DNA of 64,000 nucleotides from a bacterium (lineage in GTDB: Bacteria; 4484-113): the NCBI GenBank assembly GCA_021163765.1, contig JAGGTK010000072.1:6072-70071 (forward strand), written 5' to 3'. A program made the position numbers and the translations under genes. Shown in pieces: positions 4,901 to 55,990 of this stretch. Positions within the stretch are counted from its first letter, which is position 1. Each line of letters begins with the position of its first letter. The notes under the pieces are model-generated. The model was not told the origin of the DNA and ran no database searches. It saw only the letters and a list, made by a program, of their open reading frames with translations.

Positions 4901-5713
4901 CTGGCACGGGACGCTGTCCGCCCCGCAGTGCAGCCCGCAGATTATTTCCCCCGGTTCGCAGCGGGGGAATCGCCCGCCGTCACGGGAGACTCGGCGCAGG
5001 AAAGCGCTCCCCTGCTCGACTACCACAAATTGAGCGAAAAGCAGATTCGCGAGGAACTCGGGAAGATTGAGCGCGCGCTGTCCAACCTGGGCGAAGTCAA
5101 TCCACTCGCGCCGCGCGACTTCAGCGAGAAAAACGAGCGCCTGCAGTTCCTGACGCAGCAGGAACAGGACCTGAAGCTGGCGATTGAGGATATGAAACAA
5201 ATGCTCGAAAACCTCGACCGCCAGACGCGCGACCGTTTCGCCAGGAGCCTGAAGCTCATCGAGGGCAAGTTCAACGAGCTCTTCACGCGGCTTTTCGGCG
5301 GCGGGTTCGCGCGCTTCAAGCTTACCGAGCCCGACGACCTAATCGAGTCGGGCGTGGAGATAGAAGTCCAGCTTCCCAACGCGAGGCGGCAGAACATCAA
5401 AGCCCTGTCTGGCGGCGAGCGCAGCCTGCTGTTTATCGCCCTCTTTATCGCGGTGCATATGGTGCGGACGGGAAGCTTCTGCGTGCTCGACGAAGTGGAC
5501 GCCTCGCTGGACGACGTAAACATCGTCCGGCTGTGCCAGATGCTGGAAGACCTCTCACAGCGCGAGCAGTTTCTGGTCATCACGCACAACAAGCGCACGA
5601 TGAAGGTGATGCAGCGGCTCATCGGCGTCGTGACCCAGCCGCGCGGCATCTCGCGCGTGATTGAAGTATCGCTGAAGCAGGCTGAGCGTTACGCGGACAA
5701 GGGTGCAGCGTGA
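1913..5713 (+). CDS. smc: Chromosome segregation protein SMC
   Basis: 1266 aa. Walker A GPNGAGKSN lies near the N-terminus, followed by very long E/R/L/A-rich coiled coils around a hinge. C-terminal signature LSGGERSLLFIALF and Walker B FCVLDEVDASLD. Confidence 0.92.
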   Translation: MLRLIKIELSGFKSFALPTAIETDNDILGLVGPNGAGKSNILDAVHFAFGEQKPTMLRVGRVSDIIFGGAKSHPRQNLARVQLTFEYFEKDDEEPQPAEELQLITLPEEDETVDYASRPYGSEVGELEPEPETGPAPDDEIGVAGLDKLQPGDVITLARKAYRDGLSEYSLNGKSVRLSTVDRFFSRFQLGRYAAFSINQGEVEKKLLASPREIREWLGEASGVALLLRAKETVARRLLRSRRNLTRISDILLTLRDDVKALGEQAEDTERHNYLEQQRRWLAGYLARGRLLSAATKAEKIRAERTSHAQRLAKLETGIAALRAELEQAEREAAELLQRERGMIDQLNAQRDALSRQRIAESVLEGKKRSLTSRRDEDAGRLAIIEKRTGELAGRFEYLQEKVKRSAGALKESGETLRSAEELLLREENSIAWLKDELASADKKRVELQQELAVTREKLAHAHHERTHTERKLAEVEKNREARASELARLKSDSDQLSLDFEKKEERLVAEERRLAEARKRYEEVTDALRAAEKQLASVNERSGYMAAMKNTYEELKSEFYTSDGDDTAAPSLTLTPLLDLVSFDEEWADAVELALGDVARALVLADDGGESIIDERSLHGIFIAPGTAASASADTPWVSLWSQLHGGGGVIAALRSSLGEIAVVESAGEANKLLAENPALAGCIIRPALTLVTRGVIRKPGAPKTSLLFRRHAEMPRVDEEVVELAARRAQLQKRVQELEAERDRWASESVRWDKAVRNLQMMSLDLRGKLSEAVSREEGIATERERIAEEHRSLTARRDELAAQERELDTRADELTTKLEKISAETARSSESLQSTEQALEERRKEIRELEKARMKLATEHEVAETQFASLTRERENLEAEHDRLSAEMESAAAQLKTITVEQKELALELKKTEKLIARLEKDAGKRAEEQSGLTGRRERITAEIQSLTENRQKLEASSGDYQERLWEAESEVSEIIREIHGNLGISIITMMHELARDAVRPAVQPADYFPRFAAGESPAVTGDSAQESAPLLDYHKLSEKQIREELGKIERALSNLGEVNPLAPRDFSEKNERLQFLTQQEQDLKLAIEDMKQMLENLDRQTRDRFARSLKLIEGKFNELFTRLFGGGFARFKLTEPDDLIESGVEIEVQLPNARRQNIKALSGGERSLLFIALFIAVHMVRTGSFCVLDEVDASLDDVNIVRLCQMLEDLSQREQFLVITHNKRTMKVMQRLIGVVTQPRGISRVIEVSLKQAERYADKGAA

Positions 5714-14932: not shown

Positions 14933-16624
14933 ATGACTGAGGTCACATCTGATGACCGGAACGTTTACGGATACACTATTGACAAGCTAGTAGAGCTCCT
15001 CAGCCGTCCTTTCTCCGAGGCATACGAGGAAATAGTTTGGAAGAAGTCACACATCAAATACTTCGAGGGCTATTTCGACAAACTCGACGCCAAAACCATC
15101 GTTGTTGAGTTAGAATACGTTGACAAGGATTTCATCGAGGACTACGCCAACTATTATGTGCGTTGCTTCGGCAGCATTAGGGATATTAGAGCAGCTTGTA
15201 CGCGCATCCACTTCTTCACAGGTAGTTTCAATGAGAAAGACTTCCTGACCTTTCTCCATTCGCCAGAGGAGTCAAACGACCAACTCCTCGGTGAATATCT
15301 TGGATTCGTGGTTGTCAAGCCACTCCCTGAGGCCATAATAGGTCGAACTTGCCTGAAAACGTATCCTAGAGAACAGGGCAGAACCTATCCTATCCTACGG
15401 TTGTACCGACCTTCGCTTCACGGTATTCAGCTAGAAGTTGAATCACTTGCCTTTCAGGAACAGGACACTGTGGCTGCTGCTTGCGCGACAACCTCTATTT
15501 GGTCTGCTTTCCACAAGACTTCCCAAGAATTTGAGCACGAACTACCTACCCCAGTTCGTATCACATCCAGAGCTACAGGCTCTGGAGACCGATCAAAAAG
15601 GGCTTTGCCATCTGAAGGCCTTCATGATGCAGAGATAGCCCGTGCGATAAGGTCTGTTGGGCTTGAAACTCATACGCTGCAGCTGAATTCGCCTTACCTC
15701 CCACACCGTTCTCCTGATCTTCTGAAAGCTATGGCCTACGCTTACACTAAAGGCCAGCTGCCTGCCATTCTCTGCGGTGCTCTAGTTCCTGATAATCCTG
15801 ACATCTTCCTGCAAAGCACCTTAGGCCTAGTCCCTGCTCAAGGCTATCACGCGCTGACTATCACGGGTTTTCGACTTGAAGGACAGCTAGAGTCTTGGTC
15901 CGACGACCGTCTCCCGGACCACAATGGTCTTATGCTCACTTCTTCAAGAACTAACAAGCTTTACGTACATGATGATCAAGTCGGTCCTTTCGCTAGAATG
16001 GAGTTCCTGTCTCCCAACAAGAGGATACACCTCAGCGAATGTGATACTAACAGCCCGCTAGCATGGACTCAGTTGTCATCTTCCTACTACTGGCCTACGC
16101 TCGACTGCTTTTCCTTGTTCGCTCCCCTCTATGCCATAGTGCCAGTCTATCATAAGATTCGGGTAGAGTTCCTAACAATCCTCGACGCAATCACCAAGGT
16201 TGATGGTCTATTGGAGAATGTTCGCCACGGAACGAATGATTACCCGATCGCTTCGCGATTAGAGTGGGACGTTTACCTGACCCGCACCCATGATTTCAAG
16301 GAGAGTATCCTTGCGCGTAAGGATCTATCCACGGAATGCCGCACGAAGATATTGCTGCGCAGCTTCCCGCGTTTCATGTGGAGATGTACCGGGAAGATAT
16401 CCGACGAGTCCATCATCGATGTTCTATTCGATGCGACAAGCTATAGGAGAGGTTATTTCTTCCACCACGCCCTATCCTATAATCCCCACCTGACAACAGT
16501 GCTACAAAAGTATGTAGGTCATAAAGCTACGCAAAACAGCCTATTAAACAAGGTCAGAGATCCGTGGTATGTGAAACTCATTGAGTTTATCGAGGGAGAA
16601 ATGCGGGAAGAGCTAACGGTATAG
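14933..16624 (+). CDS. Hypothetical 563-aa protein with a central papain-like (clan CA, C39-like/UCH-like) Cys-His-Asp motif order; N- and C-terminal regions unrecognised
   Basis: ATG is preceded by GAAGAGGTGGA. Motifs: FQEQDTVAAAC(184)ATTSIWSAF, QGYH(306)ALTITGF and KLYVHDD(347/348)QVGPF. The long clean ORF sits in AT-richer DNA with no competing ORF. Confidence 0.7.
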   Translation: MTEVTSDDRNVYGYTIDKLVELLSRPFSEAYEEIVWKKSHIKYFEGYFDKLDAKTIVVELEYVDKDFIEDYANYYVRCFGSIRDIRAACTRIHFFTGSFNEKDFLTFLHSPEESNDQLLGEYLGFVVVKPLPEAIIGRTCLKTYPREQGRTYPILRLYRPSLHGIQLEVESLAFQEQDTVAAACATTSIWSAFHKTSQEFEHELPTPVRITSRATGSGDRSKRALPSEGLHDAEIARAIRSVGLETHTLQLNSPYLPHRSPDLLKAMAYAYTKGQLPAILCGALVPDNPDIFLQSTLGLVPAQGYHALTITGFRLEGQLESWSDDRLPDHNGLMLTSSRTNKLYVHDDQVGPFARMEFLSPNKRIHLSECDTNSPLAWTQLSSSYYWPTLDCFSLFAPLYAIVPVYHKIRVEFLTILDAITKVDGLLENVRHGTNDYPIASRLEWDVYLTRTHDFKESILARKDLSTECRTKILLRSFPRFMWRCTGKISDESIIDVLFDATSYRRGYFFHHALSYNPHLTTVLQKYVGHKATQNSLLNKVRDPWYVKLIEFIEGEMREELTV

Positions 16625-29942: not shown

Positions 29943-31181
29943 ATGAGCAGGCATCTTGACGCTTATACAGTGACTAAAGCCGCTTCGATTTTAGGATACA
30001 CACCTCAACACGTAAGGCACTTGATAAGAACAGGCCACCTGTTAGCATTCAAAGCAGGTAGAGATTGGCTTATTCCTCGATGGGACTTAGAGACATTTAA
30101 AGATAGCAGCTCCGAGCGCCCTAAAGAGGCAAGCCAACCTAGCGGCGCTTTAAAAACTGATAATGGTAACAAGACAGCTTGGCTGGCACTCAACGAGGTA
30201 TATTGCGGTGATTGCAGAGAACTTCTGGAGAGAATCGCACCTAACAGCATACAACTGTCCGTTTGGTCGCCTCCATATCACGTGGGTAAGAAATACGAAT
30301 CTGGCCAGAGTTATGAAGAGTGGGTTGATCTGCTTGAAACGGTAATACGCTTGCACTATAGAATCATCGAGCCTGGACAGTTTGTCGTAGTGAACATCGC
30401 AGACATCCTCTGCTTCGAGGATCTCTCAATGCCGCGGATCCAAGCAGACCTAGTAAGCAATAAGAGGCACGCGGTAACGCGAGAGATGGTTCTTCAGGCG
30501 AAAAAAGAGTATCCTAGTTATGACCGTTACCAACTAGCGGATCTCCTGGGTTGTAGCGAGCAAACAATCGATAGAAGGCTTAACGGTAACAATGTTAGAG
30601 GTGGGAAGCACTCATGTCAGACACGTGTAAAGCTTGTAAGTGCACTCATTGAGGATGCAGCTATCCAAGCCGGGTTCTACCTTTATGACAGACGCATCTG
30701 GCACAAAGACGCTGCGTGGCAGAACAGCAGGTGGCACAACTCATCGTATCGCTCGGTAGACGAGTTCGAGTACCTGTATTTCCTATGGAAGCCCGGCGTT
30801 ACGGTCATAGACAGAAACAGACTATCGAATAGTGAGTGGCAAGAATGGGGATCCAGAGGTGTCTGGCGATTCCCCTCAGTAAGAGCTAACGACCTACATG
30901 AAGCAATGTTCCCTGTAGAGTTGCCACTGCGCCTCATCAAGCTTCTTACTGATCCGGGGCACAACGTGCTTGACTGTTTCATGGGGAGTGGTACTTCCGC
31001 AGTAGCTGCACTACGACTCGGACGCAACTTCATCGGAATAGAGAAAGTCCGCGACTATGTCGACCTAGCAAAATCTAGGCTGGCCTTTGAAAGGCGCCGA
31101 GCGCAGTCTAGTCTGTTCCCCCATCGGGTTGAACCCTCAGCTGATGTTGCACCTCACCGCGTTCCCCGACACGTAACTTGA
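29943..31181 (+). CDS. Type II DNA methyltransferase (beta-class N4/N6 family, SPPY motif IV) with an N-terminal excisionase-type HTH
   Basis: N-terminus YTVTKAASILGYTPQHVRHLIRTGHLLAFKAGRDWLIP is an HTH_17-like fold. Motif IV is WSPPYHVGKKYE. Motif I is near the C-terminus (VLDCFMGSGTSAVAALRLGRNFIGIE). TATAAT lies at 29914-29919. Confidence 0.85.
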   Translation: MSRHLDAYTVTKAASILGYTPQHVRHLIRTGHLLAFKAGRDWLIPRWDLETFKDSSSERPKEASQPSGALKTDNGNKTAWLALNEVYCGDCRELLERIAPNSIQLSVWSPPYHVGKKYESGQSYEEWVDLLETVIRLHYRIIEPGQFVVVNIADILCFEDLSMPRIQADLVSNKRHAVTREMVLQAKKEYPSYDRYQLADLLGCSEQTIDRRLNGNNVRGGKHSCQTRVKLVSALIEDAAIQAGFYLYDRRIWHKDAAWQNSRWHNSSYRSVDEFEYLYFLWKPGVTVIDRNRLSNSEWQEWGSRGVWRFPSVRANDLHEAMFPVELPLRLIKLLTDPGHNVLDCFMGSGTSAVAALRLGRNFIGIEKVRDYVDLAKSRLAFERRRAQSSLFPHRVEPSADVAPHRVPRHVT

Positions 31182-31977
31182 CGCACCTCCAAGTGGCGAT
31201 CTCAGCAAGAGGGATAAGTTTTACTCTCACGCGCTTATGCTTGAACTTTACTTCATCCTTTCCTGGCGTGAGTAGCCTACCTAGGTTGTTCATGTGATAA
31301 TCTGGGCCTGTGAACATTAGCAGACCGTTTGGCACACATACAACTTCAACATGGTCGAGTGGTTGAATGCCTGGCTCCTCCACTGCGTAGACGACTTTGA
31401 GGAATACCGTTACACATAGTCGGGGAAGTTTTCTTAGCATATAAAGCGGCGGGAGTTCGGGCTGAAATACCATTTCACGTCTCGGCCCGTGTACAACAAC
31501 AGATGAATTGCCTACGTAACTTCCCTCCTTGATTGCACCATCACCGCTAATCTGGTTAGGGCTAGCGACAATTTCATTTGGATTGTCATTGGGGCCTGTA
31601 GATTTAACGTCGAAGTGACAAAGGCTATCCTGAGACATAAAGCGTATGTCGCCTCCGTATGGTAGTCCGATGAATTCTAGGTCCTCAAAATAAGATCCCA
31701 ATGACTGAAGGAAAAGGCCTTCAATAAGCTTCTCACCCACTTCACCCCAAGGTAGTGAGTCGCCTCTAGGCTTGTGCCCTCTCTGCTTCGGGGCATATAG
31801 CAGCCAATAAGGACGAAGTTCATGGCATGCGTCAAAGCCTTGATAGACAAGCGGAAGTATCTCAGTAATTGTCCTTACCACGGATCTAAATATGCGCTTT
31901 TCGGTTTCAATGATCTGTGCGCCATTATCTTTGCTATATCCCAGTATCGCTTCTTTATAGAGTTTCTGCTCGGTCAT
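31108..31977 (-). CDS. Putative type II restriction endonuclease (PD-(D/E)xK candidate)
   Basis: 289 aa in AT-richer DNA, placed between the C gene and the convergent methyltransferase. GGDIRF...CHFDVKSTG fits a D...(D/E)xK arrangement. No other family recognised. Confidence 0.6.
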   Translation of the reverse strand: MTEQKLYKEAILGYSKDNGAQIIETEKRIFRSVVRTITEILPLVYQGFDACHELRPYWLLYAPKQRGHKPRGDSLPWGEVGEKLIEGLFLQSLGSYFEDLEFIGLPYGGDIRFMSQDSLCHFDVKSTGPNDNPNEIVASPNQISGDGAIKEGSYVGNSSVVVHGPRREMVFQPELPPLYMLRKLPRLCVTVFLKVVYAVEEPGIQPLDHVEVVCVPNGLLMFTGPDYHMNNLGRLLTPGKDEVKFKHKRVRVKLIPLAEIATWRCVKLRVGERGEVQHQLRVQPDGGTD

Positions 31978-46286: not shown

Positions 46287-47559
46287 CCCTGGAAGTACAA
46301 GCTTTTATCTGGTTTTCTCGCTCCTCGGATTCCTGGGGTTGCTTTCGTTTGCGTTCAGCTCCGCCTGCCTGGGAAGCTTCCTCAGCCTCGACCCTTCGAA
46401 TATATCGCCGTTCGAAGAAGAGGACGAGCACACCAACATCAGCCGCGTCCGGACGCTGCTGCGCCGCGCGACATCCACCAGCGTCTCGCTGACCGTCGCG
46501 GGCTTTTTGAGCTTCGCCACGTCCCTGCTTTTGTTCTTCCTGGTCATCCACCGGGCCGCAGGGCTGGCGAACACTGAACCGTACTGGCTGGAATGGCTCC
46601 TGAGCGCGATCATCCTTGTGTTCCTGTCCGCGTTCATCATCTTCATCGGGCACACGATGCCGCTTATGCAGTATGCCTACCCAGAATTCATCATCAAGAA
46701 CGCCGCGTCAGCCGGGCTCGTCACGAGCATAATGCACCCTATGAGCGCGATTCTAGTGCGCACGGCGAATCTGCTCGGGCGGGCCAAATCCATTCCTGAA
46801 GCCCTGGGCGTGGAGGATTTCGAGGTCTACTCAACGACCGCGCCGGTGGAAGACGAGCTGGAAGAGGAAGAGCGCGAGATGATCTCCGCCATCGTTGAGA
46901 TGGGCGACACGACCGTGCGCGAGGTGATGACGCCGCGAATCGACATCATCGCCCTGGATGCGGACGACCCCCCTTCGGACAGCATCAACGTTGTCCTGAA
47001 CGCGCCTTTCTCGCGGTTCCCCGTCTACGAAGGGACAATCGACAACGTAATCGGCGTCCTTCACATCCGCCACCTGATGGTTAACCTTAAGCGACACCCG
47101 GAGGCTATTGACATCCGGCAGCTCGCGCAGGAGACCGTGTTCGTGCCCGAGAGCATGCGCATAGGCGACCTGCTGCGCCAGCTACGCCAGGAGCGCAGGC
47201 ATATGGCGATAGTGACCGACGAGTACGGCGGCACGGCGGGCCTGGCGACGATTGAGGATATAATCGAGGAAATCGTCGGCGAGATCCAGGATGAATACGA
47301 CGACGAGGCGCAGGACATCTACCGCAAGGACGACGGCAGTTTCGTCGTTAACGTGGCGCTGCCGGTGGAGGAGTTCAACGAGGGCACCGGGCTTTCGCTC
47401 GACGACGAGGGAAACGACACCGTAGGCGGGCTGCTTTATTCCAAGTTTGGCAGGATACCGGACAAGGGCGACGTCATCCACATAAACGGCGTCAAGTTCA
47501 CCGTCCTCCGCGTGGACAAAAACCGCATCATGCTGGCCCTGGTGGAGATATGCGACTAG
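46276..47559 (+). CDS. CNNM/CorC/HlyC-family protein (DUF21 membrane domain, CBS pair, CorC_HlyC domain)
   Basis: N-terminal TM segments, TVREVMTPRIDIIALD, a CBS pair, and C-terminal TVGGLLYSKFGRIPDKGDVIHINGVKFTVLRVDKNRI. Confidence 0.85.
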   Translation: MDTDPGSTSFYLVFSLLGFLGLLSFAFSSACLGSFLSLDPSNISPFEEEDEHTNISRVRTLLRRATSTSVSLTVAGFLSFATSLLLFFLVIHRAAGLANTEPYWLEWLLSAIILVFLSAFIIFIGHTMPLMQYAYPEFIIKNAASAGLVTSIMHPMSAILVRTANLLGRAKSIPEALGVEDFEVYSTTAPVEDELEEEEREMISAIVEMGDTTVREVMTPRIDIIALDADDPPSDSINVVLNAPFSRFPVYEGTIDNVIGVLHIRHLMVNLKRHPEAIDIRQLAQETVFVPESMRIGDLLRQLRQERRHMAIVTDEYGGTAGLATIEDIIEEIVGEIQDEYDDEAQDIYRKDDGSFVVNVALPVEEFNEGTGLSLDDEGNDTVGGLLYSKFGRIPDKGDVIHINGVKFTVLRVDKNRIMLALVEICD

Positions 47560-50500
47560 GGGGGCGCTTTTTCAATGATGTCAATCTCGTCGTCGGTCAA
47601 TCCATAGAGCTTGTAGACTATCTGGTCAATCAAGCGGTCGGTTGCTGTAATACGTTTAAATAACGGATTAAGCTTCGACAAGTTCTTCTCATGCTCCTCC
47701 TTAAACATGCTGAAGAAGCTTGTGGTATTTGGATTTACTCCACGCGACGATAGCAATTTCTGGTTTTTACCTTTCCTGAGAACACGTACAAGTTCTTCCG
47801 CATCACAGACGAAATAAGCTCTGAGTTGTGTTTTGCCGTCCAACTCATCAATCTCAATTCCGTTGAGAAGCGATCCGCTGAGCCAGCCCAATAAATCGCG
47901 GATTAGCTTCTGCTTCTTCTTGTGCATCTGTATCATCTGCTTTGCGAGATAAGCCAATGTTCCCCGAGCCGCATCCAGATTAACGAGACTGTGTGGAGTG
48001 GAGCGTTGAACCAACTTAATGATTGGACCGATATCTCCTTTCTTGAGATATAAGGCATAGTATTTTTTCAAACGACCGACAAGTTGTTTCGATTTTTCCG
48101 CAGATGATACAGGTTGGGAGTCTGGGATAGGAAGGTTCTCCATGTATTGGGCAATCAGCCGTAAACGACCGCGTTTGTCCTCGTCTCCTAGCACAGCAGC
48201 TGTCCTCTTCATATAGCCAAAGCAGCATTTGGAATTCAGCAACGAGAGCAGGTAGTAGTCATCGAGAGGAATGAAATATGCTGTATTAGCGCAAAATATT
48301 GCCTGGTCATCAAATGCGAAACGTGCTTCGAAGGCGATGTCGGGATATACAATCTTCGGCTTCTCGAAATCCTGCCAATAGTCCACCGTGTCCTGTATCT
48401 CGTACCATTTATAGTCACCCGGCTTTCTCCCGGGTCCCTTCTGACCCCGTGTGCTCTTGGGTATGAGGTCCGATTTCCATTGCTCTAGGTGCGCTATCAC
48501 CGCTGGATACTCCTCGATGTCTACCCCCCTGCGAGCAAAGATAAGATACCGGTCACGGAAGTTAACTTCGTAGCATCGAATATCGTCGCCGACGACAAGA
48601 GGCTTGATGATTTCATCGCTCTTCGCATCCTCGGTAATCAGCCGGTCACGCGTTACGGAATCAATGATGAATGCCTGGTTGAAGCCGGTCTTGATACCGT
48701 AGTAGGTTCTCGTACCCCTGTGTGCAAGATACTGCTTCAAAGGAATGCCTCGGGATTCCAGTTTGCGAAGCAGTTTTACTTCCGCGTCACCCCGTAGCGA
48801 CCAGTTCATACCTTCGAAAGCCTGCGGTGATAACAGCTCGGAGGTCTCGTCAATGCGATCTTGTAGGCTCTTGAAATCGAGGGCCTTCACTTGAGTAAAA
48901 CGTGTGCCTTGCAGTGCTCCTTGGCGCAGGATAACAATACATGGGAAAGCCGCAGAATCCTCAAACACCGGAAGCTCACCAAAGTCCGTTATTTCCTGAA
49001 TATCAGCGTGAGCCGTCAGAAACTCGCGTAACGGTCCGCCGTAATCGGCCCGCATAAACTTGTTCTTCGTGATCATGCCGAACGTGCCCTTTTTGTTGAG
49101 CATGTTCAGGCCCAGACCATAGAAGTAAACGTACAGGTCGGCGGAACCGTGGTAGACATCATTCCACAGATGTTCAAATAAGGGTTTGTCCGACCCGAGT
49201 CCCTCCTGCCGCACGTATGGCGGATTGCCGATAACTGCGTCAAAGCCACGTTCACCTTCAGCCTTCAGATCGGAGCGCCCGTCTGCAATCTCAAAGAAAG
49301 CTTCCGGGAACTCAAGTTCCCAGTGGAAGAACCGCTTCTCCCTGGCGATCTCCTGTGCAGCATCGAACCATTCCTCGCTGCGGAGTTCTGCGCGCTCATC
49401 TTCACCGCTCTTCAGTGCGTTCACCGCCTGCTGGTATTCGACTTCGCTGATGGGAACACCGAAGTACGGCGCGAGCCAGACGTTGGCCACTTCGCGGAAT
49501 GCATCGCGCGCACTATCCATCTCCCTGTATAGCGTATCCTTGTAGCGCTCGTCATCCGCGGTGTCACTTGGAGCCTCCATAATCTTGCGGAAGGTGTCGA
49601 GGAAGTAATGTAAATGCGTGCCCGTAAGCGCATCTGTAAATCCCAGTGCCATCTGCTGGTTGCTGGCCTCTTTCGCTTGCTTCTTCCGCTCTTTAGGATC
49701 GGCCGCAGGCGGGACGCGGCTCAGGTCGGCCTCAATACGGGCACCGATCAGGCTGTTGCCAGTCCGCAAATGGTGGTCGAGGAATGATAGTGCCCTGTCG
49801 CGGCTGACTGTGTGGAGCCATAGTGATAGCTTGGCCAGCTCTACCGCCAGCGGATTCAAGTCCACTCCGTATAAGCAATTCTCTACGACAAACCGTCTGT
49901 AATACGCTTGCGGGTTCTCGTCGCCGATATCTATCGGGTCCAGTGATGGGTCGGTAGCCATTGCGAGGCTCAGGAAGTCCGCCGCAGCGACCAGGAAATG
50001 CCCGCTACCCATTGCCGGATCGAGTATCTTCAGGTTCCGATAGGGTTCAAGCAGCTTTCGTTGCACTTGGTGGATTTCGGATTCCAGTGATTCGCGTTCG
50101 TTGGGAATGCCGCCCTTCTCACCAAGCAACTTGTGTAGTCTTTGTAGCTCCTTTTCGACTTTACTCTTGAGCTTGGCGGTTTCTTTCGCGGCTTCGCCCG
50201 CCAGGGGGTCCAACGTCTGCTCCACGATGTACTTGACGATATACGCGGGCGTGTAGTAACTTCCGGTTGCCTTGCGCTCTCCACGGTCTGTAACAAGATA
50301 GACTTCGCCTGGCCGCACTCGCCGCGGTGATTGCCCCTTTGGTTTCTTGTTCGAGGACTTCAGCTTACTAACTTCCTTGAACTTGTGTTTCTTGCCCTCG
50401 CAAACTTCCACCATATCTTCGGTGGCAATATGTGGCCTGAGTTCAAGGAGTCCTTCGTAAATGCTGCCAAGGTCACGCACTTCCAACGTGGCGTAATCAA

Positions 50501-51755
50501 TATCGCTCATGCCCGGCTTATCCCAATCCTTACGTTCGTACGCTAGCCTATCAACTGCCTCGGCGATATAGGAGTCCCCGATTTGCCATTGCTGATTACC
50601 GATAGCTGGTCTGTATGCGATGTGTGGGTATTCTTCAGGATTAAACAGCCCACCATTGTACGCTGGGACTTTCGCGTCCTCGAGTCCCTTGTCAAGTATC
50701 TCAAAGAGAAATTGCAGCTTTGGCCAGATTGTCCTCCCTTTCGAAGAATACTTCGGCTTTCGAGAGCGCAGCTGCTGATTAACTTCAGAGTGTACGCCTC
50801 TCAGGCTGTAAGAGCTATAGATATCGTTGTTTACCGGCAATAGACTGCGGTCCTCCGCATATAGCAGAAACAACAATCGATAAAGCACGATTAGCGCGTT
50901 CTTGTGCACAAGCGCGATTTGCGCTGCGTCACTCCCGTCAAGTTCGTTTCTCGGCTCCATAAGGAAACCGGTCATTAGTATTCTCAGTGCGTCATAGACA
51001 CTATCTTTAAGGCTTTTGCCTACTGCCGTTGTGTAGGCCTGGCTTTCCTTGAGAACGTAGTCTAGGAAGCTTATCCCATCTTTATCGCGCAGAAACGCCT
51101 CACGGCGGAAGAAGAGGTAAAACCATTTGAAACCTCGATAGTCGTTCTCACGGATGATCTCATCGAGGTCTACTTCAAAGTAGATTTCGCCCGCGCTCGA
51201 CTTCTCTTTCTCGTATAACCTCCATTTCGCTCCGTTGGTGAGGATACCCCATCGGACTTTGGAGCGGTAGAGATAGTTTGTTATCTGAGCCGATGGGGTT
51301 TCGTCTCCCCGCTTCTTATCAAGCGGTTGTTGCCATCGTTTAGCGTCAGCTAGGGCGACAGCATTACTCCAGTACGCAGGTTTGCCACTGAGCTTGTCCG
51401 CGGCATTTCGGTCAGTGGCGGATGCGAACATTGCATAATCAGGCTTTTTCGACATGCCCGAAATAGAGATCACTTGCTGCACTTGCCAAGTGCGTTCCTC
51501 TCCCTCGTTCCATAGAATCTCTAGGACAGGCTTGATAAAGTCATCTTCGGTGACTGGCTCCGTGGTCTTACCAGAGAAATCCTTCGCGTGCTTCTCGTAT
51601 ATCTGCGTGATCTTCGACAGGATATCCTTCAGAATCGGTTCATCAACTTTCTGCCATTCTGGGTGGTCGGGCAGCCTGGTCCTGAGATAGTTGTCGGCAA
51701 ACAGGCCTTTATTGGAATACTCCCCGTTAAGGTCGAGTTTCTGTTGAGTCGCCAT
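47556..51755 (-). CDS. Type IIG restriction enzyme / N6-adenine DNA methyltransferase fusion (Eco57I/MmeI-like architecture), 1399 aa
   Basis: N-terminal nuclease-like PDYAMF...ALADAKRW...WGILTNGAKWRLY. Methylase motifs YYTPAYIVKYIV, ILDPAMGSGHFLV and VIGNPPYVRQE. C-terminal IDQIVYKLYGLTDDEIDIIE tail. The DNA is AT-richer. Confidence 0.85.
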   Translation of the reverse strand: MATQQKLDLNGEYSNKGLFADNYLRTRLPDHPEWQKVDEPILKDILSKITQIYEKHAKDFSGKTTEPVTEDDFIKPVLEILWNEGEERTWQVQQVISISGMSKKPDYAMFASATDRNAADKLSGKPAYWSNAVALADAKRWQQPLDKKRGDETPSAQITNYLYRSKVRWGILTNGAKWRLYEKEKSSAGEIYFEVDLDEIIRENDYRGFKWFYLFFRREAFLRDKDGISFLDYVLKESQAYTTAVGKSLKDSVYDALRILMTGFLMEPRNELDGSDAAQIALVHKNALIVLYRLLFLLYAEDRSLLPVNNDIYSSYSLRGVHSEVNQQLRSRKPKYSSKGRTIWPKLQFLFEILDKGLEDAKVPAYNGGLFNPEEYPHIAYRPAIGNQQWQIGDSYIAEAVDRLAYERKDWDKPGMSDIDYATLEVRDLGSIYEGLLELRPHIATEDMVEVCEGKKHKFKEVSKLKSSNKKPKGQSPRRVRPGEVYLVTDRGERKATGSYYTPAYIVKYIVEQTLDPLAGEAAKETAKLKSKVEKELQRLHKLLGEKGGIPNERESLESEIHQVQRKLLEPYRNLKILDPAMGSGHFLVAAADFLSLAMATDPSLDPIDIGDENPQAYYRRFVVENCLYGVDLNPLAVELAKLSLWLHTVSRDRALSFLDHHLRTGNSLIGARIEADLSRVPPAADPKERKKQAKEASNQQMALGFTDALTGTHLHYFLDTFRKIMEAPSDTADDERYKDTLYREMDSARDAFREVANVWLAPYFGVPISEVEYQQAVNALKSGEDERAELRSEEWFDAAQEIAREKRFFHWELEFPEAFFEIADGRSDLKAEGERGFDAVIGNPPYVRQEGLGSDKPLFEHLWNDVYHGSADLYVYFYGLGLNMLNKKGTFGMITKNKFMRADYGGPLREFLTAHADIQEITDFGELPVFEDSAAFPCIVILRQGALQGTRFTQVKALDFKSLQDRIDETSELLSPQAFEGMNWSLRGDAEVKLLRKLESRGIPLKQYLAHRGTRTYYGIKTGFNQAFIIDSVTRDRLITEDAKSDEIIKPLVVGDDIRCYEVNFRDRYLIFARRGVDIEEYPAVIAHLEQWKSDLIPKSTRGQKGPGRKPGDYKWYEIQDTVDYWQDFEKPKIVYPDIAFEARFAFDDQAIFCANTAYFIPLDDYYLLSLLNSKCCFGYMKRTAAVLGDEDKRGRLRLIAQYMENLPIPDSQPVSSAEKSKQLVGRLKKYYALYLKKGDIGPIIKLVQRSTPHSLVNLDAARGTLAYLAKQMIQMHKKKQKLIRDLLGWLSGSLLNGIEIDELDGKTQLRAYFVCDAEELVRVLRKGKNQKLLSSRGVNPNTTSFFSMFKEEHEKNLSKLNPLFKRITATDRLIDQIVYKLYGLTDDEIDIIEKAPP

Positions 51756-51840: not shown

Positions 51841-53514
51841 GTGAGCCGACTTGATACCACATCGCGCATCGTAAGGCCGCCTACGGGCACGAAGCTTACC
51901 TGCCAGGGCTGGGTGCAGGAAGCGGCGTACCGGATGATCCAGCACAACGTCAGCCCCGAAGTGGCGGAGAAGCCCGACGAGCTTATCGTCTACGGCGGCA
52001 CCGGCAAAGCCGCGCGCAACTGGGAGTGCTTCGACGGCATCCTGAATGCGCTGAAGGAAGTCGGCGCCGACGAGACGCTGCTCGTGCAGTCGGGCAAGGC
52101 CGTGGGCATCTTCCGCAGCCATGAATGGGCGCCGCGCGTGTTCATCGCCAACAGCAACATCGTCCCGCACTGGGCCGACTGGGAGCACTTCCGCGAATAC
52201 GAGCGGATGGGCCTGACCATGTACGGCCAGATGACCGCCGGAAGCTGGATTTATATCGGCACGCAGGGCATCCTGCAGGGAACTTACGAGACGCTCGCTT
52301 CGCTGGCGAGCCGGCACTTCGGCGGGAGCCTGGAAGGGACGATTACACTCACAGCCGGCCTGGGCGGAATGGGCGGCGCGCAGCCGCTGGCGATTACATT
52401 CAACGGCGGCGTGGCGCTCATCGTCGAAGTCGACCGCGAGCGCATAGAGCGCAGGCTGGCGACAAAGTATCTCGACACGATGACCAAATCGCTGGACGAG
52501 GCAGTGGAACTTGCGGAGAATGCGCGGGCGGAGAAGCGCCCGTTGTCCATCGGGTTGCTGGGCAACGCCGCGGACACGCATCCGGAGCTGGCCAAGCGCG
52601 GCTTCAAGCCCGACGTGGTCACCGACCAGACGAGCGCCCACGACGAGCTCAACGGCTATGTGCCATCGGGAATGCTCTACGAGGAGGCGCTTCAGCTTCG
52701 CCGCTCAGATCCCGAACGCTACCGCGAAATGGCGTGGGACTCGATGGCGAAGCACGTGCGCGCGATGCTCGATCTGCTGGACGCGGGCGCGGTCGTGTTT
52801 GACTACGGCAACAACATTCGCGGCCAGGTGCAGGCGCACCGCGATATGGACGACGCGTTCCGCTTCCCTGGCTTCGTCCCCGCGTACATCCGCCCGCTGT
52901 TTTGCGACGGGCAGGGGCCGTTTAGGTGGGTGGCGCTGTCCGGCGACCCCGAAGACATCTACACGACCGACCGCGAACTGGCGAAGCTGTTCCCGGAAAA
53001 GGAGCACCTGCTGCGCTGGCTGAAACTTGCCGGCGAGAAGGTGGCGTTCCAGGGGCTGCCCTCGCGCATCTGCTGGCTGGGATACGGCGAGCGCGACCTC
53101 GCGGGATTGATGTTCAACGATCTGGTGAAGAGCGGCAAGGTGAAGGCGCCAATTGTTATCGGCCGCGACCACCTGGATGCGGGCAGCGTTGCCAGCCCGT
53201 ACCGCGAAACCGAAGGGATGAAGGACGGCAGCGACGCCATCGCCGACTGGCCGGTGCTCAACGCGCTGCTGAACTCCGTGAGCGGCGCAAGCTGGGTGAG
53301 CTTCCATCACGGCGGCGGCGTGGGCATCGGCTACAGCCTGCACGCGGGAATGGTCGTGGTGGCTGACGGCACGGATATGCAGGCGCAAAAGCTACAGCGA
53401 GTGCTGACTACCGACCCGGGCACCGGCATAATGCGCCACGCCGATGCAGGCTACGAAGAAGCCATTGACGCCGCGAAGAAGCACCAGCTCCGCGTCTCGG
53501 GAAATATGGAATAG
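51841..53514 (+). CDS. hutU: Urocanate hydratase
   Basis: 557 aa. [17 protein letters not shown]...[16 protein letters not shown]...[12 protein letters not shown]...[11 protein letters not shown]. Confidence 0.92.
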
Positions 53515-53518
53515 CGGT

Positions 53519-53547
53519 TTGACTAAACGATAGTAAAGTGTTAATAT
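53519..53547 (+). promoter_or_regulatory. Putative sigma70-type promoter of islet 5
   Basis: TTGACT (53519-53524), 17-nt spacer, TAATAT (53542-53547), 20 nt upstream of GTG 53568. Confidence 0.5.
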
Positions 53548-53567
53548 TATGGTGACTAATATCCTGC

Positions 53568-54080
53568 GTGTCTGGGGGACCTGTGGAACTGTCAACACTT
53601 AAAGCGATTCTAAAGGTCTGGGGCATCCAGATTCCCAAGCTGAATGCGGAAAATGGCATTGACGAGCGCATCAAAGTGCAGAAGCTGATGTACTTGCTGC
53701 AGGGCAGGCAAAAAAGCCTACGGTACCTATACAACATCTATATTCGTGGTCCGTATTCGCCCTCGCTCTCACAAGACTACTACGATCTCGCATCTAGGCT
53801 ATCAGAGATTACTGCCGGAAGCCTTCCAGAAGATACGCGAGTGAACCTAGAGACTGTGAAACGCGACGCAGACGAGTTCTCTAAGATGCTGGACTCAGTT
53901 GATGATGTTGCGTCGCTTGAATTACTGGCAACGACTCTGTTCTTCGGCAAGCACTATTCAACTGAGAGCAAGATAGTCGAAGCAGTGCAGTCTATCAAAC
54001 CTAAGTTCAGTAGAGAGCAAGTACAAGCAGCGCTCAACTTCCTGGTACAGAACGACTATTCCGAAAATTACGGCAGCTGA
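53568..54080 (+). CDS. Small protein resembling DUF4065/Panacea (SocA-like) or YwgA-type partner proteins (170 aa)
   Basis: IKVQKLMYLLQGRQKSLRYLYNIYIRGPYSPSLSQDYYDL fits the K-L-Q-K-L-h-Y ... G-P-h ... Y pattern of DUF4065 as I recall it. GTG start. It ends 7 nt before the HD gene. Confidence 0.5.
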   Translation: MSGGPVELSTLKAILKVWGIQIPKLNAENGIDERIKVQKLMYLLQGRQKSLRYLYNIYIRGPYSPSLSQDYYDLASRLSEITAGSLPEDTRVNLETVKRDADEFSKMLDSVDDVASLELLATTLFFGKHYSTESKIVEAVQSIKPKFSREQVQAALNFLVQNDYSENYGS

Positions 54081-54087
54081 GTACTCG

Positions 54088-55467
54088 ATGAGAGTATATG
54101 ATGATCTATACGGCCTAGTTGAGTTCAACAGGCATGAAAGGCTGATTATCGATCACCCAATGTTTCAGCGACTCCGGCGCGTCAAGCAGCTAGCCTTGGC
54201 TGATTACATATTCCCTGGTGCTACACATTCGCGTTTTTCACACTCGTTGGGCGTTGCAGACCTTATGAAACGACTCGCCTCTAAGGTTTTGGATGTAGCT
54301 TGGAAGAGAAATGACGAGAATCCAAGAAGTCCTCTTAGCACACTTAGGATGGCAGCCTTGTTGCATGACATCGGTCACCTCCCGCTATCGCATTCCCTTG
54401 AGGATGCCTACGAAGCCCAGATTGGACACACCAGCGAACTTCCTAAAGAACTTACGCCATTAGAAGCGCCAAAGGATGAACGACAAAAGCTCCACGAACT
54501 CCTATCTAAGCTAGTGATTACCAAATCACCATTGGCAGAGAGACTGGGTGAGCTAAATTTCAACACACAAGATATAGGAGCAATTGTTACAGGAGTTCAC
54601 CAGAGAATTTTGTATAATCAACTCCTCCATAGCGACCTTGATGTTGACCAAATGGACTATTTGCTCCGTGACGCCAAAGCCACAGGAATCAACTATGGTG
54701 AGTATAACTCGTCATACCTTCTAAATAACATCCTCCAAGATGAGATTACGCACGTACTTTTCGTGGATGAGAAAGCACTCCACACGGTGGAACATTTCAT
54801 CCTTGCCAAGTACTTCTATTTCCTCCAGATTCTCTATCACAAGAAAAGGGATATCTATGAAAGGCTTGCCGCAGTCTGCGCTCAGTGGCTTATAGAGGAC
54901 AAGGAACTACAGTTAAACCTCCCATCACTGACGGAACTTCCTCAATGCATTAAGTCAGGCGAGTTCTCTCACCTAGATGACCATCGCTTCTTTGCGGCCT
55001 TAAGACAGTTCCAGAAGAAGTTAAAAGAGAACGATATTCGCAGAAGAATCTGCTCAATACTGCTGGACCGCCATCATGTCGGTGTATTAACAACCGAGAA
55101 GATGGTTAAAGTCGACATACTGCAACCTGAGAACGAAACTGAAGACGCTCATGCGGTTATCGAAAATGAGTATTCGCAAGAGATGAAAGCTCTTCAGGGG
55201 CAGAATCTGTTTGAAGACACCGAGTTAGAAAATACTAGCTTCTCACCTTTTGTTCGTCATGAGGTAAGCTTCTACAAACCCAGCTCGGAGACTGAGAAAC
55301 GAAAGCCTGAGGAGGGACCTAATCCTGAGACCATTAAGGTCGGATTGGGCAAACGCAGAGCGTTATCGGAAATCAACACATTACCTCAGTCGATGATTCC
55401 CCCACTTACGGAATACATAACCGTTCTCTACCGATACTACTACTACCCTGACAACCTGCTAAGGTAG
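54088..55467 (+). CDS. SAMHD1/EF1143/YwfO-like HD-domain phosphohydrolase (putative dNTP triphosphohydrolase)
   Basis: VYDDLYGLVEFNRHERLIIDHPMFQRLRRVKQLALADYIFPGATHSRFSHSLGV, then AALLHDIGHLPLSHSLED, then DLDVDQMDYLLRDAKATGI. This gives the H...HD...D metal site in SAMHD1 order and context. Confidence 0.8.
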   Translation: MRVYDDLYGLVEFNRHERLIIDHPMFQRLRRVKQLALADYIFPGATHSRFSHSLGVADLMKRLASKVLDVAWKRNDENPRSPLSTLRMAALLHDIGHLPLSHSLEDAYEAQIGHTSELPKELTPLEAPKDERQKLHELLSKLVITKSPLAERLGELNFNTQDIGAIVTGVHQRILYNQLLHSDLDVDQMDYLLRDAKATGINYGEYNSSYLLNNILQDEITHVLFVDEKALHTVEHFILAKYFYFLQILYHKKRDIYERLAAVCAQWLIEDKELQLNLPSLTELPQCIKSGEFSHLDDHRFFAALRQFQKKLKENDIRRRICSILLDRHHVGVLTTEKMVKVDILQPENETEDAHAVIENEYSQEMKALQGQNLFEDTELENTSFSPFVRHEVSFYKPSSETEKRKPEEGPNPETIKVGLGKRRALSEINTLPQSMIPPLTEYITVLYRYYYYPDNLLR

Positions 55468-55477
55468 AATCTTAGCG

Positions 55478-55990
55478 ATGCTCAATCATAAGAACGCTTA
55501 TATCATCTTGCCACTCCTAGGTTACCTCATCCTCGCATCCTGCGCGCCACCCCAGTCCATTGAGCGGCGGGCGCACAGCTTCTACAGCTTCCTGACGGGC
55601 CACCGGCCGTCCGCGAGCTTTGAAGACTACATCTCGCCAGCGTTCCGCAGCGAAATCGCCACGGGGCAGGGGAAAACGCGGCTGGAGATTCTGACGCAGG
55701 CGCTGCGCTCACCCTCAGGCACCAAGCTGGACGCGCCCAAACTGGAAGACGTGCGCGCTATAACCGAAGGCGACTTTGCGCTCACCTGGCTCGAAGGCCG
55801 GCCCGACCAGCCGCTCACGGACAGCCCGCCGATGCGCTGGGTCAAAGTCAAGGGGCGCTGGTACCTCTACTTCGGCACAGCGAAGGAGTATGAGGAATAC
55901 CGCGACTTCCCCAGCGCGCTGCGCCGCGAAGAGCCGGAAGTACCCAGCGGTTCGGAGCTTTCGGAAGGCGCACCTGCGGGCACGGGCTAA
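55478..55990 (+). CDS. Hypothetical lipoprotein (170 aa)
   Basis: Lipobox LILASC after a hydrophobic N-terminus. The first ~60 nt are AT-richer than the rest of the gene. Confidence 0.55.
   Translation: MLNHKNAYIILPLLGYLILASCAPPQSIERRAHSFYSFLTGHRPSASFEDYISPAFRSEIATGQGKTRLEILTQALRSPSGTKLDAPKLEDVRAITEGDFALTWLEGRPDQPLTDSPPMRWVKVKGRWYLYFGTAKEYEEYRDFPSALRREEPEVPSGSELSEGAPAGTG

Follow-up and report, generated by a model that had tools for sequence, protein, structure and literature searches.

Depletion of deoxynucleoside triphosphates (dNTPs) is an antiviral strategy common to animals (SAMHD1) and bacteria (dGTPases, dCTP deaminases and Clover), and we know of no bacterial dNTPase besides that of Clover for which a restraint has been described. 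In the two-gene Clover module, the dNTPase CloA was reported to be toxic alone and to be restrained by its partner gene (PMC12265719). Single-gene anti-phage dGTPases of the HD superfamily were described by Tal et al. (2022), who could not align these published defensive enzymes directly to SAMHD1, and EF1143 was proven to be a dNTPase (PMC3190883). In DarTG, the C-terminal domain of DarG binds and blocks the toxin DarT, and proteins with a DUF4065 domain were reported in a 2026 paper to be homologous to this DarG domain (PMC13621843). The Panacea (PanA) proteins are small and mostly helical, and their genes form closely spaced pairs in bacterial, archaeal and phage genomes. No HD or dNTPase toxin is named in the main text of the study that described them, as distinct from its supplementary datasets (PMC8832971). 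Here we describe a two-gene cassette located at 53519-55540 of a 64,000-nucleotide stretch of contig JAGGTK010000072.1 (assembly GCA_021163765.1), the whole of which is referred to as the window. The cassette encodes a small YwgA-like protein that is homologous to the toxin-binding domain of DarG and, directly downstream, an HD phosphohydrolase that resembles SAMHD1 and EF1143. We propose that the two genes form a mobile effector and neutraliser module, either toxin-antitoxin-like or defensive, and regard the chances of this proposal as evenly balanced.

The cassette, its borders and the codons of its predicted metal site were found to be organized as follows.

51841-53514 (+): hutU, encoding a canonical urocanase; stop codon at 53512-53514
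53515-53518: left junction of the low-GC islet, placed by the drop in composition and by the end of similarity to the related genome L004 at the hutU stop
53519-53547 (+): σ70-like promoter predicted by a consensus scan, TTGACT-17-TAATAT with an extended -10 TG
53583-54080 (+): small gene, 165 aa, YwgA family and homologue of the DarG C-terminal domain; GTG start supported by homologues
54088-55467 (+): HD phosphohydrolase gene, 459 aa, SAMHD1/EF1143 type, predicted dNTP triphosphohydrolase (Pfam, PDB matches and AlphaFold2 (AF2) model)
54241-54243 (+): codon of His52, first metal ligand (SAMHD1 H167); His in 70 of 70 partnered homologues
54364-54369 (+): codons of His93-Asp94, the HD motif (SAMHD1 H206-D207); invariant or nearly so in the alignments
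54646-54648 (+): codon of Asp187, fourth metal ligand (SAMHD1 D311), within DLDVDQMDYLLRD; Asp in 70 of 70
55468-55540 (+): right junction zone, made up of a 10-nt spacer and about 21 signal-peptide codons of the lipoprotein gene, placed by comparison with L004 and by GC
55478-55990 (+): lipoprotein-like gene, from its open reading frame (ORF)

An earlier note on this DNA, made from the letters and their ORFs, had described an AT-rich two-gene unit lying right after hutU with its own TTGACT-17-TAATAT promoter and a 7-nt gap between the genes, and everything that it states about the sequence itself was confirmed. The GC content dropped from approximately 0.65 to 0.46-0.49 four bases past the hutU stop and stayed low until approximately 55.5 kb. 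It was 0.48 for the small gene and 0.46 for the HD gene, as compared to 0.65 for hutU, 0.63 for the lipoprotein gene and about 0.64 for the flanks. The HD gene begins 7 nt past the stop of the small gene, and the lipoprotein ORF starts 10 nt past the HD stop (at 55478), both distances as in the earlier note. The first 30 nt of the lipoprotein ORF have a GC content of 0.33. The small ORF has an alternative in-frame GTG at 53568, which would give a protein of 170 aa with the same end (54080). The probable true start is the later GTG at 53583, behind a GGGGGA sequence (53574-53579), and it is backed by homologues and by public annotation: the 165-aa form showed 99% identity to NCBI J7J84_05660, and homologues align from residue 1. 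The best database matches (E = 1.6e-292 for the HD protein and 1.2e-99 for the small protein) indicate that both genes are real.

The HD protein was found to be of the SAMHD1/EF1143 type over its full length. Besides a Pfam HD domain (2e-11), single-sequence searches of the PDB gave matches to BT4208 (2q14; 1e-28), EF1143 (2o6i; 3e-26), Aquifex O67745 (2hek; 1e-25) and human SAMHD1 (approximately 2e-15), and a profile of 56 family sequences matched 2hek at 8e-72, EF1143 at 1.7e-68 and SAMHD1 at approximately 1e-44. The AF2 model (pLDDT 91.4) had EF1143, BT4208 and SAMHD1 as its top Foldseek matches, all with probability 1.0, TM-scores of 0.63-0.75 and some 470-490 aligned columns. For EF1143 (3irh, 2o6i and 4lrl) the E-values were approximately 1e-17 to 1e-18, with TM-scores of 0.64-0.69 when normalized by the query and 0.66-0.71 when normalized by the target, and for SAMHD1 the E-value was approximately 1e-15. 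Since the superposition extends over 470-490 columns, the C-terminal lobe also shares the EF1143/SAMHD1 fold.

Residues of the HD protein were mapped by alignment register (residue 4 to SAMHD1 119 and residue 106 to SAMHD1 219) onto the established SAMHD1 numbering and its metal, catalytic, substrate and allosteric site 1 roles. Conservation was counted over 70 non-redundant partnered HD homologues.

Metal ligands: H52, H93, D94 and D187 (SAMHD1 H167, H206, D207 and D311); kept in 69-70 of 70
Catalytic histidines: H97, H102 and H136 (SAMHD1 H210, H215 and H233); kept in 66-70 of 70
Substrate contacts: Q34, L35, R49, Y191 and D195 (SAMHD1 Q149, L150, R164, Y315 and D319); Q34 and L35 kept in 68, R49 in 70, Y191 in 69 and D195 in 65 of 70
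Allosteric site 1 (guanine): D22, Q27 and R30 (SAMHD1 D137, Q142 and R145); Q27 kept in 63, R30 in 53, and D22 as Asp or Asn in 51 of 70

The earlier note had called the protein SAMHD1-like with an H...HD...D site and had quoted the strings FQRLRRVKQL...FPGATHSRFSHSLGV, LLHDIGHLPLSH and DVDQMDYLLRD. All of these strings are present in the protein, the PDB and Foldseek matches agree with the assignment, and every mapped metal, catalytic and substrate residue is in place. Judged by alignment and by the model, the protein is thus a full-length SAMHD1/EF1143-type enzyme with intact catalytic residues. As EF1143 is a proven dNTPase, hydrolysis of dNTPs to deoxynucleoside and triphosphate is the most likely activity to be inferred for it. 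It is similar to SAMHD1 and EF1143 in the fold of the catalytic core and the C-terminal lobe, in metal, catalytic and substrate residues and in the triad of allosteric site 1. It differs from them in its low identity (16-22%), in having a dedicated small partner and in lying in a mobile low-GC cassette. Unlike SAMHD1, it showed no Pfam match to a SAM domain, and only some three residues stand ahead of the first conserved HD-core strand. Comparison of the allosteric-site residues between partnered and unpartnered HD proteins gave no clear difference.

Membership of the HD protein in the Dgt-type anti-phage dGTPase family was rejected. It scored 18.6 bits against the NCBIfam anti-phage dGTPase model NF041026 (cutoff 400) and 29.3 bits against TIGR01353 (cutoff 152), and the match to the PADLOC dGTPase model (6.7e-7) was confined to residues 12-108. 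In all, approximately 100 N-terminal residues (about 12-110 of 459) were matched by these models. The single-gene anti-phage dGTPases of Tal et al. (2022) resemble it in belonging to the HD superfamily, in predicted dNTP depletion and in often lying near restriction-modification genes. The enzymes covered by NF041026 and the PADLOC dGTPase model belong to another subfamily, whereas the HD protein of the window has an obligate partner gene and, unlike the defensive dGTPases of Tal et al., aligns directly with SAMHD1.

The small protein showed similarity to the C-terminal half of DarG in both sequence and predicted fold. It matched positions 181-327 of the 329-position PADLOC DarG profile (5.4e-9) and positions 188-320 of the 338-position NCBIfam model NF048014 (1.9e-6). 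The 165-aa protein covers only the C-terminal half of the DarG models, and its score was 27 bits at a cutoff of 250. The match to the DarG C-terminal region was also present in 37 of 44 members of the YwgA-like family. The AF2 model was all-helical (pLDDT 95.6), and its one meaningful Foldseek match in the PDB was the DarG C-terminal domain bound to DarT (7yk3_B; probability 1.00, TM-scores 0.64 and 0.57), the runner-up having an E-value above 1. In profile searches of the PDB, the close-family profile gave no match and a broader profile found the same DarG structure (E = 0.0017). The residues that characterize the family are, in window numbering, R29, Q33, K34, Y37, L38, Q40, Y48, Y53, G56-P57-Y58-S59-P60, L62, E113 and K139, and the motif R-x3-QK-x2-YL...GPYS is common to the small protein and the toxin-binding domain of DarG. 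The locus resembles DarTG also in that the small gene adjoins an enzyme presumed to be harmful when unrestrained. It differs from DarTG, which is defined by a macrodomain and an adjacent DarT, in that the small protein has no macrodomain, so that no enzymatic reversal of damage is expected, and in that its neighbour is the HD phosphohydrolase and not an ADP-ribosyltransferase.

The earlier note had described a 170-aa protein similar to DUF4065 and YwgA. The YwgA part of this description was upheld: P0128, which is named 'uncharacterized protein YwgA' by JGI, was matched at 1e-5 by single sequence, and dozens of JGI 'YwgA' proteins matched the family profile at 1e-38 to 1e-47. The DUF4065 part did not hold, the nearest defined relative being the DarG C-terminal domain. 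Pfam yielded no meaningful domain for the small protein. The Pfam model PF13274 (SocA_Panacea, DUF4065) gave no match to the window protein and its eight closest relatives at E-values up to 10 or to any of the 44-member YwgA-like set at E-values up to 1. The same model recognized PanA of phage phi52237 (8e-18) and PanA of phage PhiR47_1 (6e-18), and membership in the Pfam DUF4065 family was ruled out by these scans of the protein and 43 relatives. Thus, the small protein differs from true PanA proteins, which match PF13274 at approximately 1e-17. It is linked weakly to Panacea by profile comparison: hhalign of the 44-sequence YwgA-like profile against nine true PanA sequences gave a weak match over 72 columns (probability 59%, E = 9.2e-5) that included the QK-x2-Y...GP(Y/V) core, and against a single PanA sequence the E-value was 0.08. 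Similarities to PanA include the small and mostly helical protein, the core motif QKL-Y...GP(V/Y), the close spacing of two paired genes in bacterial, archaeal and phage genomes, and the occurrence of the YwgA-like family beside several unrelated downstream ORFs. By sequence and predicted structure, the small protein is taken to be a stand-alone member of a DarG-C/Panacea-like superfamily outside the DUF4065 family. An exhaustive profile search (E up to 1e-3) found 2363 cluster representatives of the YwgA-like family, nearly all of them 150-180 aa long.

The earlier note had named a lack of joint conservation of the two genes as one of the results that would refute it, and strong joint conservation was found from both sides. 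The HD side was scanned with one genome per species, and among the 80 best loci examined a YwgA-like ORF was present within approximately 110 nt of the HD gene at 24. This neighbour was present at 13 of the 14 genome loci at which the HD protein was closest to the partnered type. Pairs were found in Desulfurococcales archaea, Planctomycetota, Dehalococcoidia, Clostridia, Gastranaerophilales, Acidobacteriota, Accumulibacter and Nitrospirillum, and adjacency was also seen in Bacillota (L029 and L034). The earlier note had suggested the Bacillus subtilis genes ywfO (HD) and ywgA (small protein) as a comparable neighbour pair, and the loci counted here show the same kind of association of a YwgA-like gene with a YwfO-like HD gene. 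In IMG/VR viral contigs, all 14 of the most similar HD loci had the partner (16 of the 80 examined). On the side of the small protein, 80 metagenome loci were collected with the close-family alignment, of which 21 were too short to be informative; an HD gene adjoined the small gene at 44 of the remaining 59, and 15 lacked it despite room. At 43 of the 44 HD-adjacent loci the small gene precedes the HD gene in the same orientation, at distances of -16 to +47 nt, and at one locus it lies downstream (+87 nt). When four distant YwgA-like proteins were checked singly, each had an HD gene next door. Besides, the two proteins diverge in step, their pairwise identities being correlated (r = 0.77, a value reached in 0 of 2000 Mantel permutations with 35 non-identical pairs), and the correlation was 0.41 once close pairs were removed. 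The pair has the layout of a type II toxin-antitoxin (TA) system, that is, two adjacent genes with a shared promoter, conserved across phyla, archaea and phages. One candidate for a natural YwgA::HD fusion (P0263, 322 aa; L181:3001-4645) was rejected as a probable indel artefact, since the HD frame breaks again downstream on this long-read contig.

About one quarter of the informative YwgA-like genes had no HD gene. At these loci (L196:1889-2374, L229:3478-3966, L254:1541-2029, L201:1274-1783, L240:1121-1636 and others) their downstream neighbours, 0-2 nt away, are small ORFs that measure 115-171 aa and lack a Pfam match. The same ORF of 161-162 aa was found at six loci and an ORF of 169 aa at two, and PIN and HicB-like genes were present near some of these loci. 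That these small ORFs are alternative cargo of a portable neutraliser is only suggestive.

The window matches a metagenome-assembled genome (locus tag J7J84_05660), and three related genomes, L004, L006 and L007, share the neighbourhood. The identities of their proteins to those of the window were as follows.

L004: hutU 94%, nth 91%, small protein 35%, HD protein 38%
L006: hutU 86%, nth 67%, small protein 47%, HD protein 41%
L007: hutU 79%, nth 56%, small protein 47%, HD protein 48%

The most divergent allele of the pair is thus found in the closest genome, L004, and the GC content of the pair is 0.46-0.51 against flanks of 0.58-0.68 in all four genomes. The pair has also been relocated in L004, where it lies between hutU and CorC (L004:5526-7449, +), which is the site of a Type IIG gene in the window; the site of the window's pair, between hutU and the lipoprotein gene, is filled in L004 by a low-GC DUF4268 gene (L004:2214-3164, -). 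Both flanks of hutU act as insertion hot spots for accessory genes. The pattern of divergence and GC is best explained, at the sequence level, if alleles of an outside gene pool were repeatedly acquired or exchanged at this hot spot, and it is not that of vertical descent, in line with the separately acquired AT-rich islet of the earlier note. The right junction, which that note had suspected within the signal-peptide region, was borne out there. The lipoprotein and its counterpart in L004 (L004:1699-2217, -) have unrelated signal peptides but are nearly identical past the lipobox Cys. This difference, together with the matching mature part, places the junction within the first 20 or so codons, at approximately 55540. 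Insertion of the islet seems to have given a core lipoprotein gene a new 5′ end and signal peptide. No flanking direct or inverted repeats, att sites, tRNA gene or integrase gene were found at the islet, the only tRNA genes of the window lying at approximately 41.7 and 44.3 kb.

The promoter appears to travel with the genes. The alleles of L006 and L007, whose proteins show 41-48% identity to those of the window, keep the -35 sequence TTGACT and the 17-nt spacing, with TAGGAT or TATAGT as the -10 sequence; this conservation in divergent alleles indicates that the promoter is real and part of the cassette. The spacer between -35 and -10 keeps an element ..AAAC/TTAC-n4-GTAA.. in three divergent alleles (window 53519-53547, L006 approximately 5440-5470 and L007 approximately 2105-2135), which might be a candidate operator for autoregulation. 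No intrinsic terminator was found on the + strand after the HD gene, and the lipoprotein gene may therefore be transcribed from the cassette promoter.

Pairs were also found among the genes of phages in IMG/VR contigs, namely between the large terminase and portal genes (L098:3461-5464), beside a serine integrase (L097:2943-4947) and beside a tail-fibre gene (L095:3450-5458), and on the viral contig L092 near a thymidylate synthase and a ParB-methylase. This placement shows that the pair is also cargo of real phages. Within the window, the gene on the other side of hutU encodes a Type IIG restriction-modification enzyme of 1399 aa with Eco57I, TaqI_C and MmeI domains (47556-51755, -; GC 0.51), for which the best PADLOC match was DrmMI (3e-109). 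This gene is absent in L006, where CorC is directly followed by hutU, which indicates a separate low-GC insertion. A further low-GC islet (29943-31977, approximately 0.49) is a type II restriction-modification system, with an HTH_17 and N6_N4 DNA methylase gene (29943-31181, +) and a BglI/SfiI-like endonuclease gene (31108-31977, -). A third low-GC block (14-17 kb, GC approximately 0.49) contains a 563-aa ORF without a Pfam match (14933-16624, +). Among 120 ORFs around 25 other pairs, Eco57I-type genes (3), ImmA/IrrE genes with HTH (3), McrBC, Type ISP, ResIII, SNF2 and YhcG were found. This genomic context, read from sequence, points to defence.

The pair was compared to known systems and to the literature. 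It resembles Clover in being a two-gene module with a dNTP-hydrolysing HD enzyme and a predicted restraint by the neighbouring gene. In Clover, however, restraint is exerted through the small-molecule signal p3diT from the Pol-beta-type nucleotidyltransferase (NTase) CloB, whereas the partner found here is like a protein-binding antitoxin domain, and the small protein had no match to an NTase in Pfam, NCBIfam or PADLOC. The PADLOC candidate system PDC-M19 was considered and rejected, as the only match was a weak one to the N-terminal part of PDC-M19A and no HD component was matched. A literature search (YwgA, YwfO, dNTPase with antitoxin, DUF4065 with HD, SAMHD1-like with phage) retrieved no characterization of the pair and no paper giving a function for YwgA or YwfO. 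The earlier note was not aware of the pairing as a described defence or TA system, and the absence of any such publication in this search agrees with it.

We propose the following mechanism. The cassette would be a self-contained, horizontally mobile module of two genes under their own promoter, in which the HD enzyme is the effector and probably converts dNTPs to deoxynucleoside and triphosphate. The small protein would bind the HD enzyme directly and hold it inactive in normal growth, as in type II TA systems; such a neutraliser-type role is suggested by its homology to the DarG domain that binds and blocks a toxin. If the partner were lost, titrated away or displaced, as might happen upon phage infection, the HD enzyme would be released, dNTPs would run low and neither the invader nor the cell could go on replicating its DNA. 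The benefit would be phage defence or stabilization of the carrier element. Clover gives a precedent for a toxic dNTPase under restraint and DarTG one for the neutralizing domain. In combining depletion of dNTPs with a neutraliser of the DarG/Panacea type, the family joins two themes that are already known and contains nothing categorically new.

Several observations weigh against a mobile effector and neutraliser module. The window allele has Gln188 (codon 54649-54651) where 58 of the 70 homologues have Arg or Lys. This position corresponds to SAMHD1 K312, which contacts the substrate phosphates, and the replacement might reduce the activity of the window enzyme. Gene order varies, with the small gene upstream of HD proteins of approximately 450-500 aa, downstream in a second group and convergent in a few cases, an arrangement looser than that of classical TA operons. 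Unpartnered HD homologues are common and may be housekeeping dNTPases. A copy near hutU is retained in all four sister genomes, which is also compatible with a housekeeping role. Many neighbours of the other pairs are ordinary metabolic genes (PGK, PFK and GatC), and the neighbour scan was a comparison without a control set. The pair of small and HD genes is not covered by any model in PADLOC v2. With a median pI of 5.7 and a net charge of approximately -2, the small protein is no more than mildly acidic; these values do not support the hypothesis of an acidic DNA mimic, and DarG-style DNA mimicry is not to be assumed, a further difference from DarTG. Finally, dNTPase activity, binding, inhibition and toxicity, like the trigger and the defence role, are properties that we infer for the pair.

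Among the alternatives, the one that survives best, although it is unlikely, is a regulated housekeeping enzyme that trims dNTPs outside replication, as proposed for Dgt/EF1143-type enzymes, with the YwgA-like protein as regulatory subunit and no involvement in phage or plasmid conflict. It would account for the unpartnered homologues, which are widespread and core-gene-like in Bdellovibrio, Acidobacteria and Thaumarchaeota, as well as for the copy kept in all four sister genomes and the metabolic genes around many pair loci, and the conserved guanine-binding triad of SAMHD1 (D22, Q27 and R30) would suggest ordinary regulation by nucleotide levels. It does not fit with a GC content of the pair 15-19 points under that of the host in all four sister genomes, with alleles far more divergent than the flanking genes and relocated in L004, with pairs in phage genomes at typical sites of accessory genes, or with a partner homologous to an antitoxin domain.

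It is improbable that the small protein instead activates the HD enzyme, serves it as a sensor or specificity subunit or regulates the operon as a winged-helix transcription factor, the HD enzyme being inactive without it. Adjacency and co-divergence show coupling and are silent on its direction, gene order is not fixed, and the N-terminal part of the small protein weakly matches the fold of the winged-helix proteins Fur, Zur and PerR (TM-scores of approximately 0.25-0.3). These winged-helix matches were non-significant (E > 2), however, and the sole strong relative in structure and sequence is a domain that binds and blocks a toxin (PMC13621843); YwgA-like genes are also found tightly upstream of unrelated small ORFs, like promiscuous antitoxins.

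An HD enzyme acting through a substrate other than dNTPs (NTPs, modified or signalling nucleotides, or nucleic-acid ends) has a similarly low probability: the HD superfamily is catalytically diverse, the nearest structures 2q14 and 2hek have no assigned activity, Q188 replaces a phosphate-contacting Lys/Arg and the curated dGTPase models score far below cutoff (29 bits against at least 152), but the SAMHD1 residues that read deoxyribose and triphosphate (L150, Y315, D319, R164 and Q149) are kept as L35, Y191, D195, R49 and Q34, and the fold agrees throughout, C-terminal lobe included, with that of the proven dNTPases EF1143 and SAMHD1.

A broader interpretation can be put forward tentatively, as a possibility that we find somewhat doubtful. 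The YwgA-like proteins, as relatives of the DarG C-terminal domain, would be a second family of portable neutralisers of the Panacea kind, with a SAMHD1-type dNTPase toxin as their main cargo. The pair would then be a true and widespread abortive-infection or TA system, present in bacteria, archaea and their viruses, by which invaders are deprived of dNTPs. It would also be the nearest prokaryotic equivalent of SAMHD1 immunity, under the control of a protein inhibitor and not of nucleotides alone.

The cassette suggests a restraint different from that of Clover, namely a DarG/Panacea-type protein neutraliser set over an enzyme that can be aligned directly with human SAMHD1. It belongs to a large family, with its 2363 cluster representatives of the small protein, that is present in bacteria, archaea and phages and is uncharacterized in the literature found. 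If the proposal is true, a family would be added to the known defence or toxin-antitoxin systems, the toxins neutralised by DarG/Panacea-type domains would come to include enzymes of the nucleotide pool, and the YwfO and YwgA proteins of the Bacillus subtilis type would be given a function.

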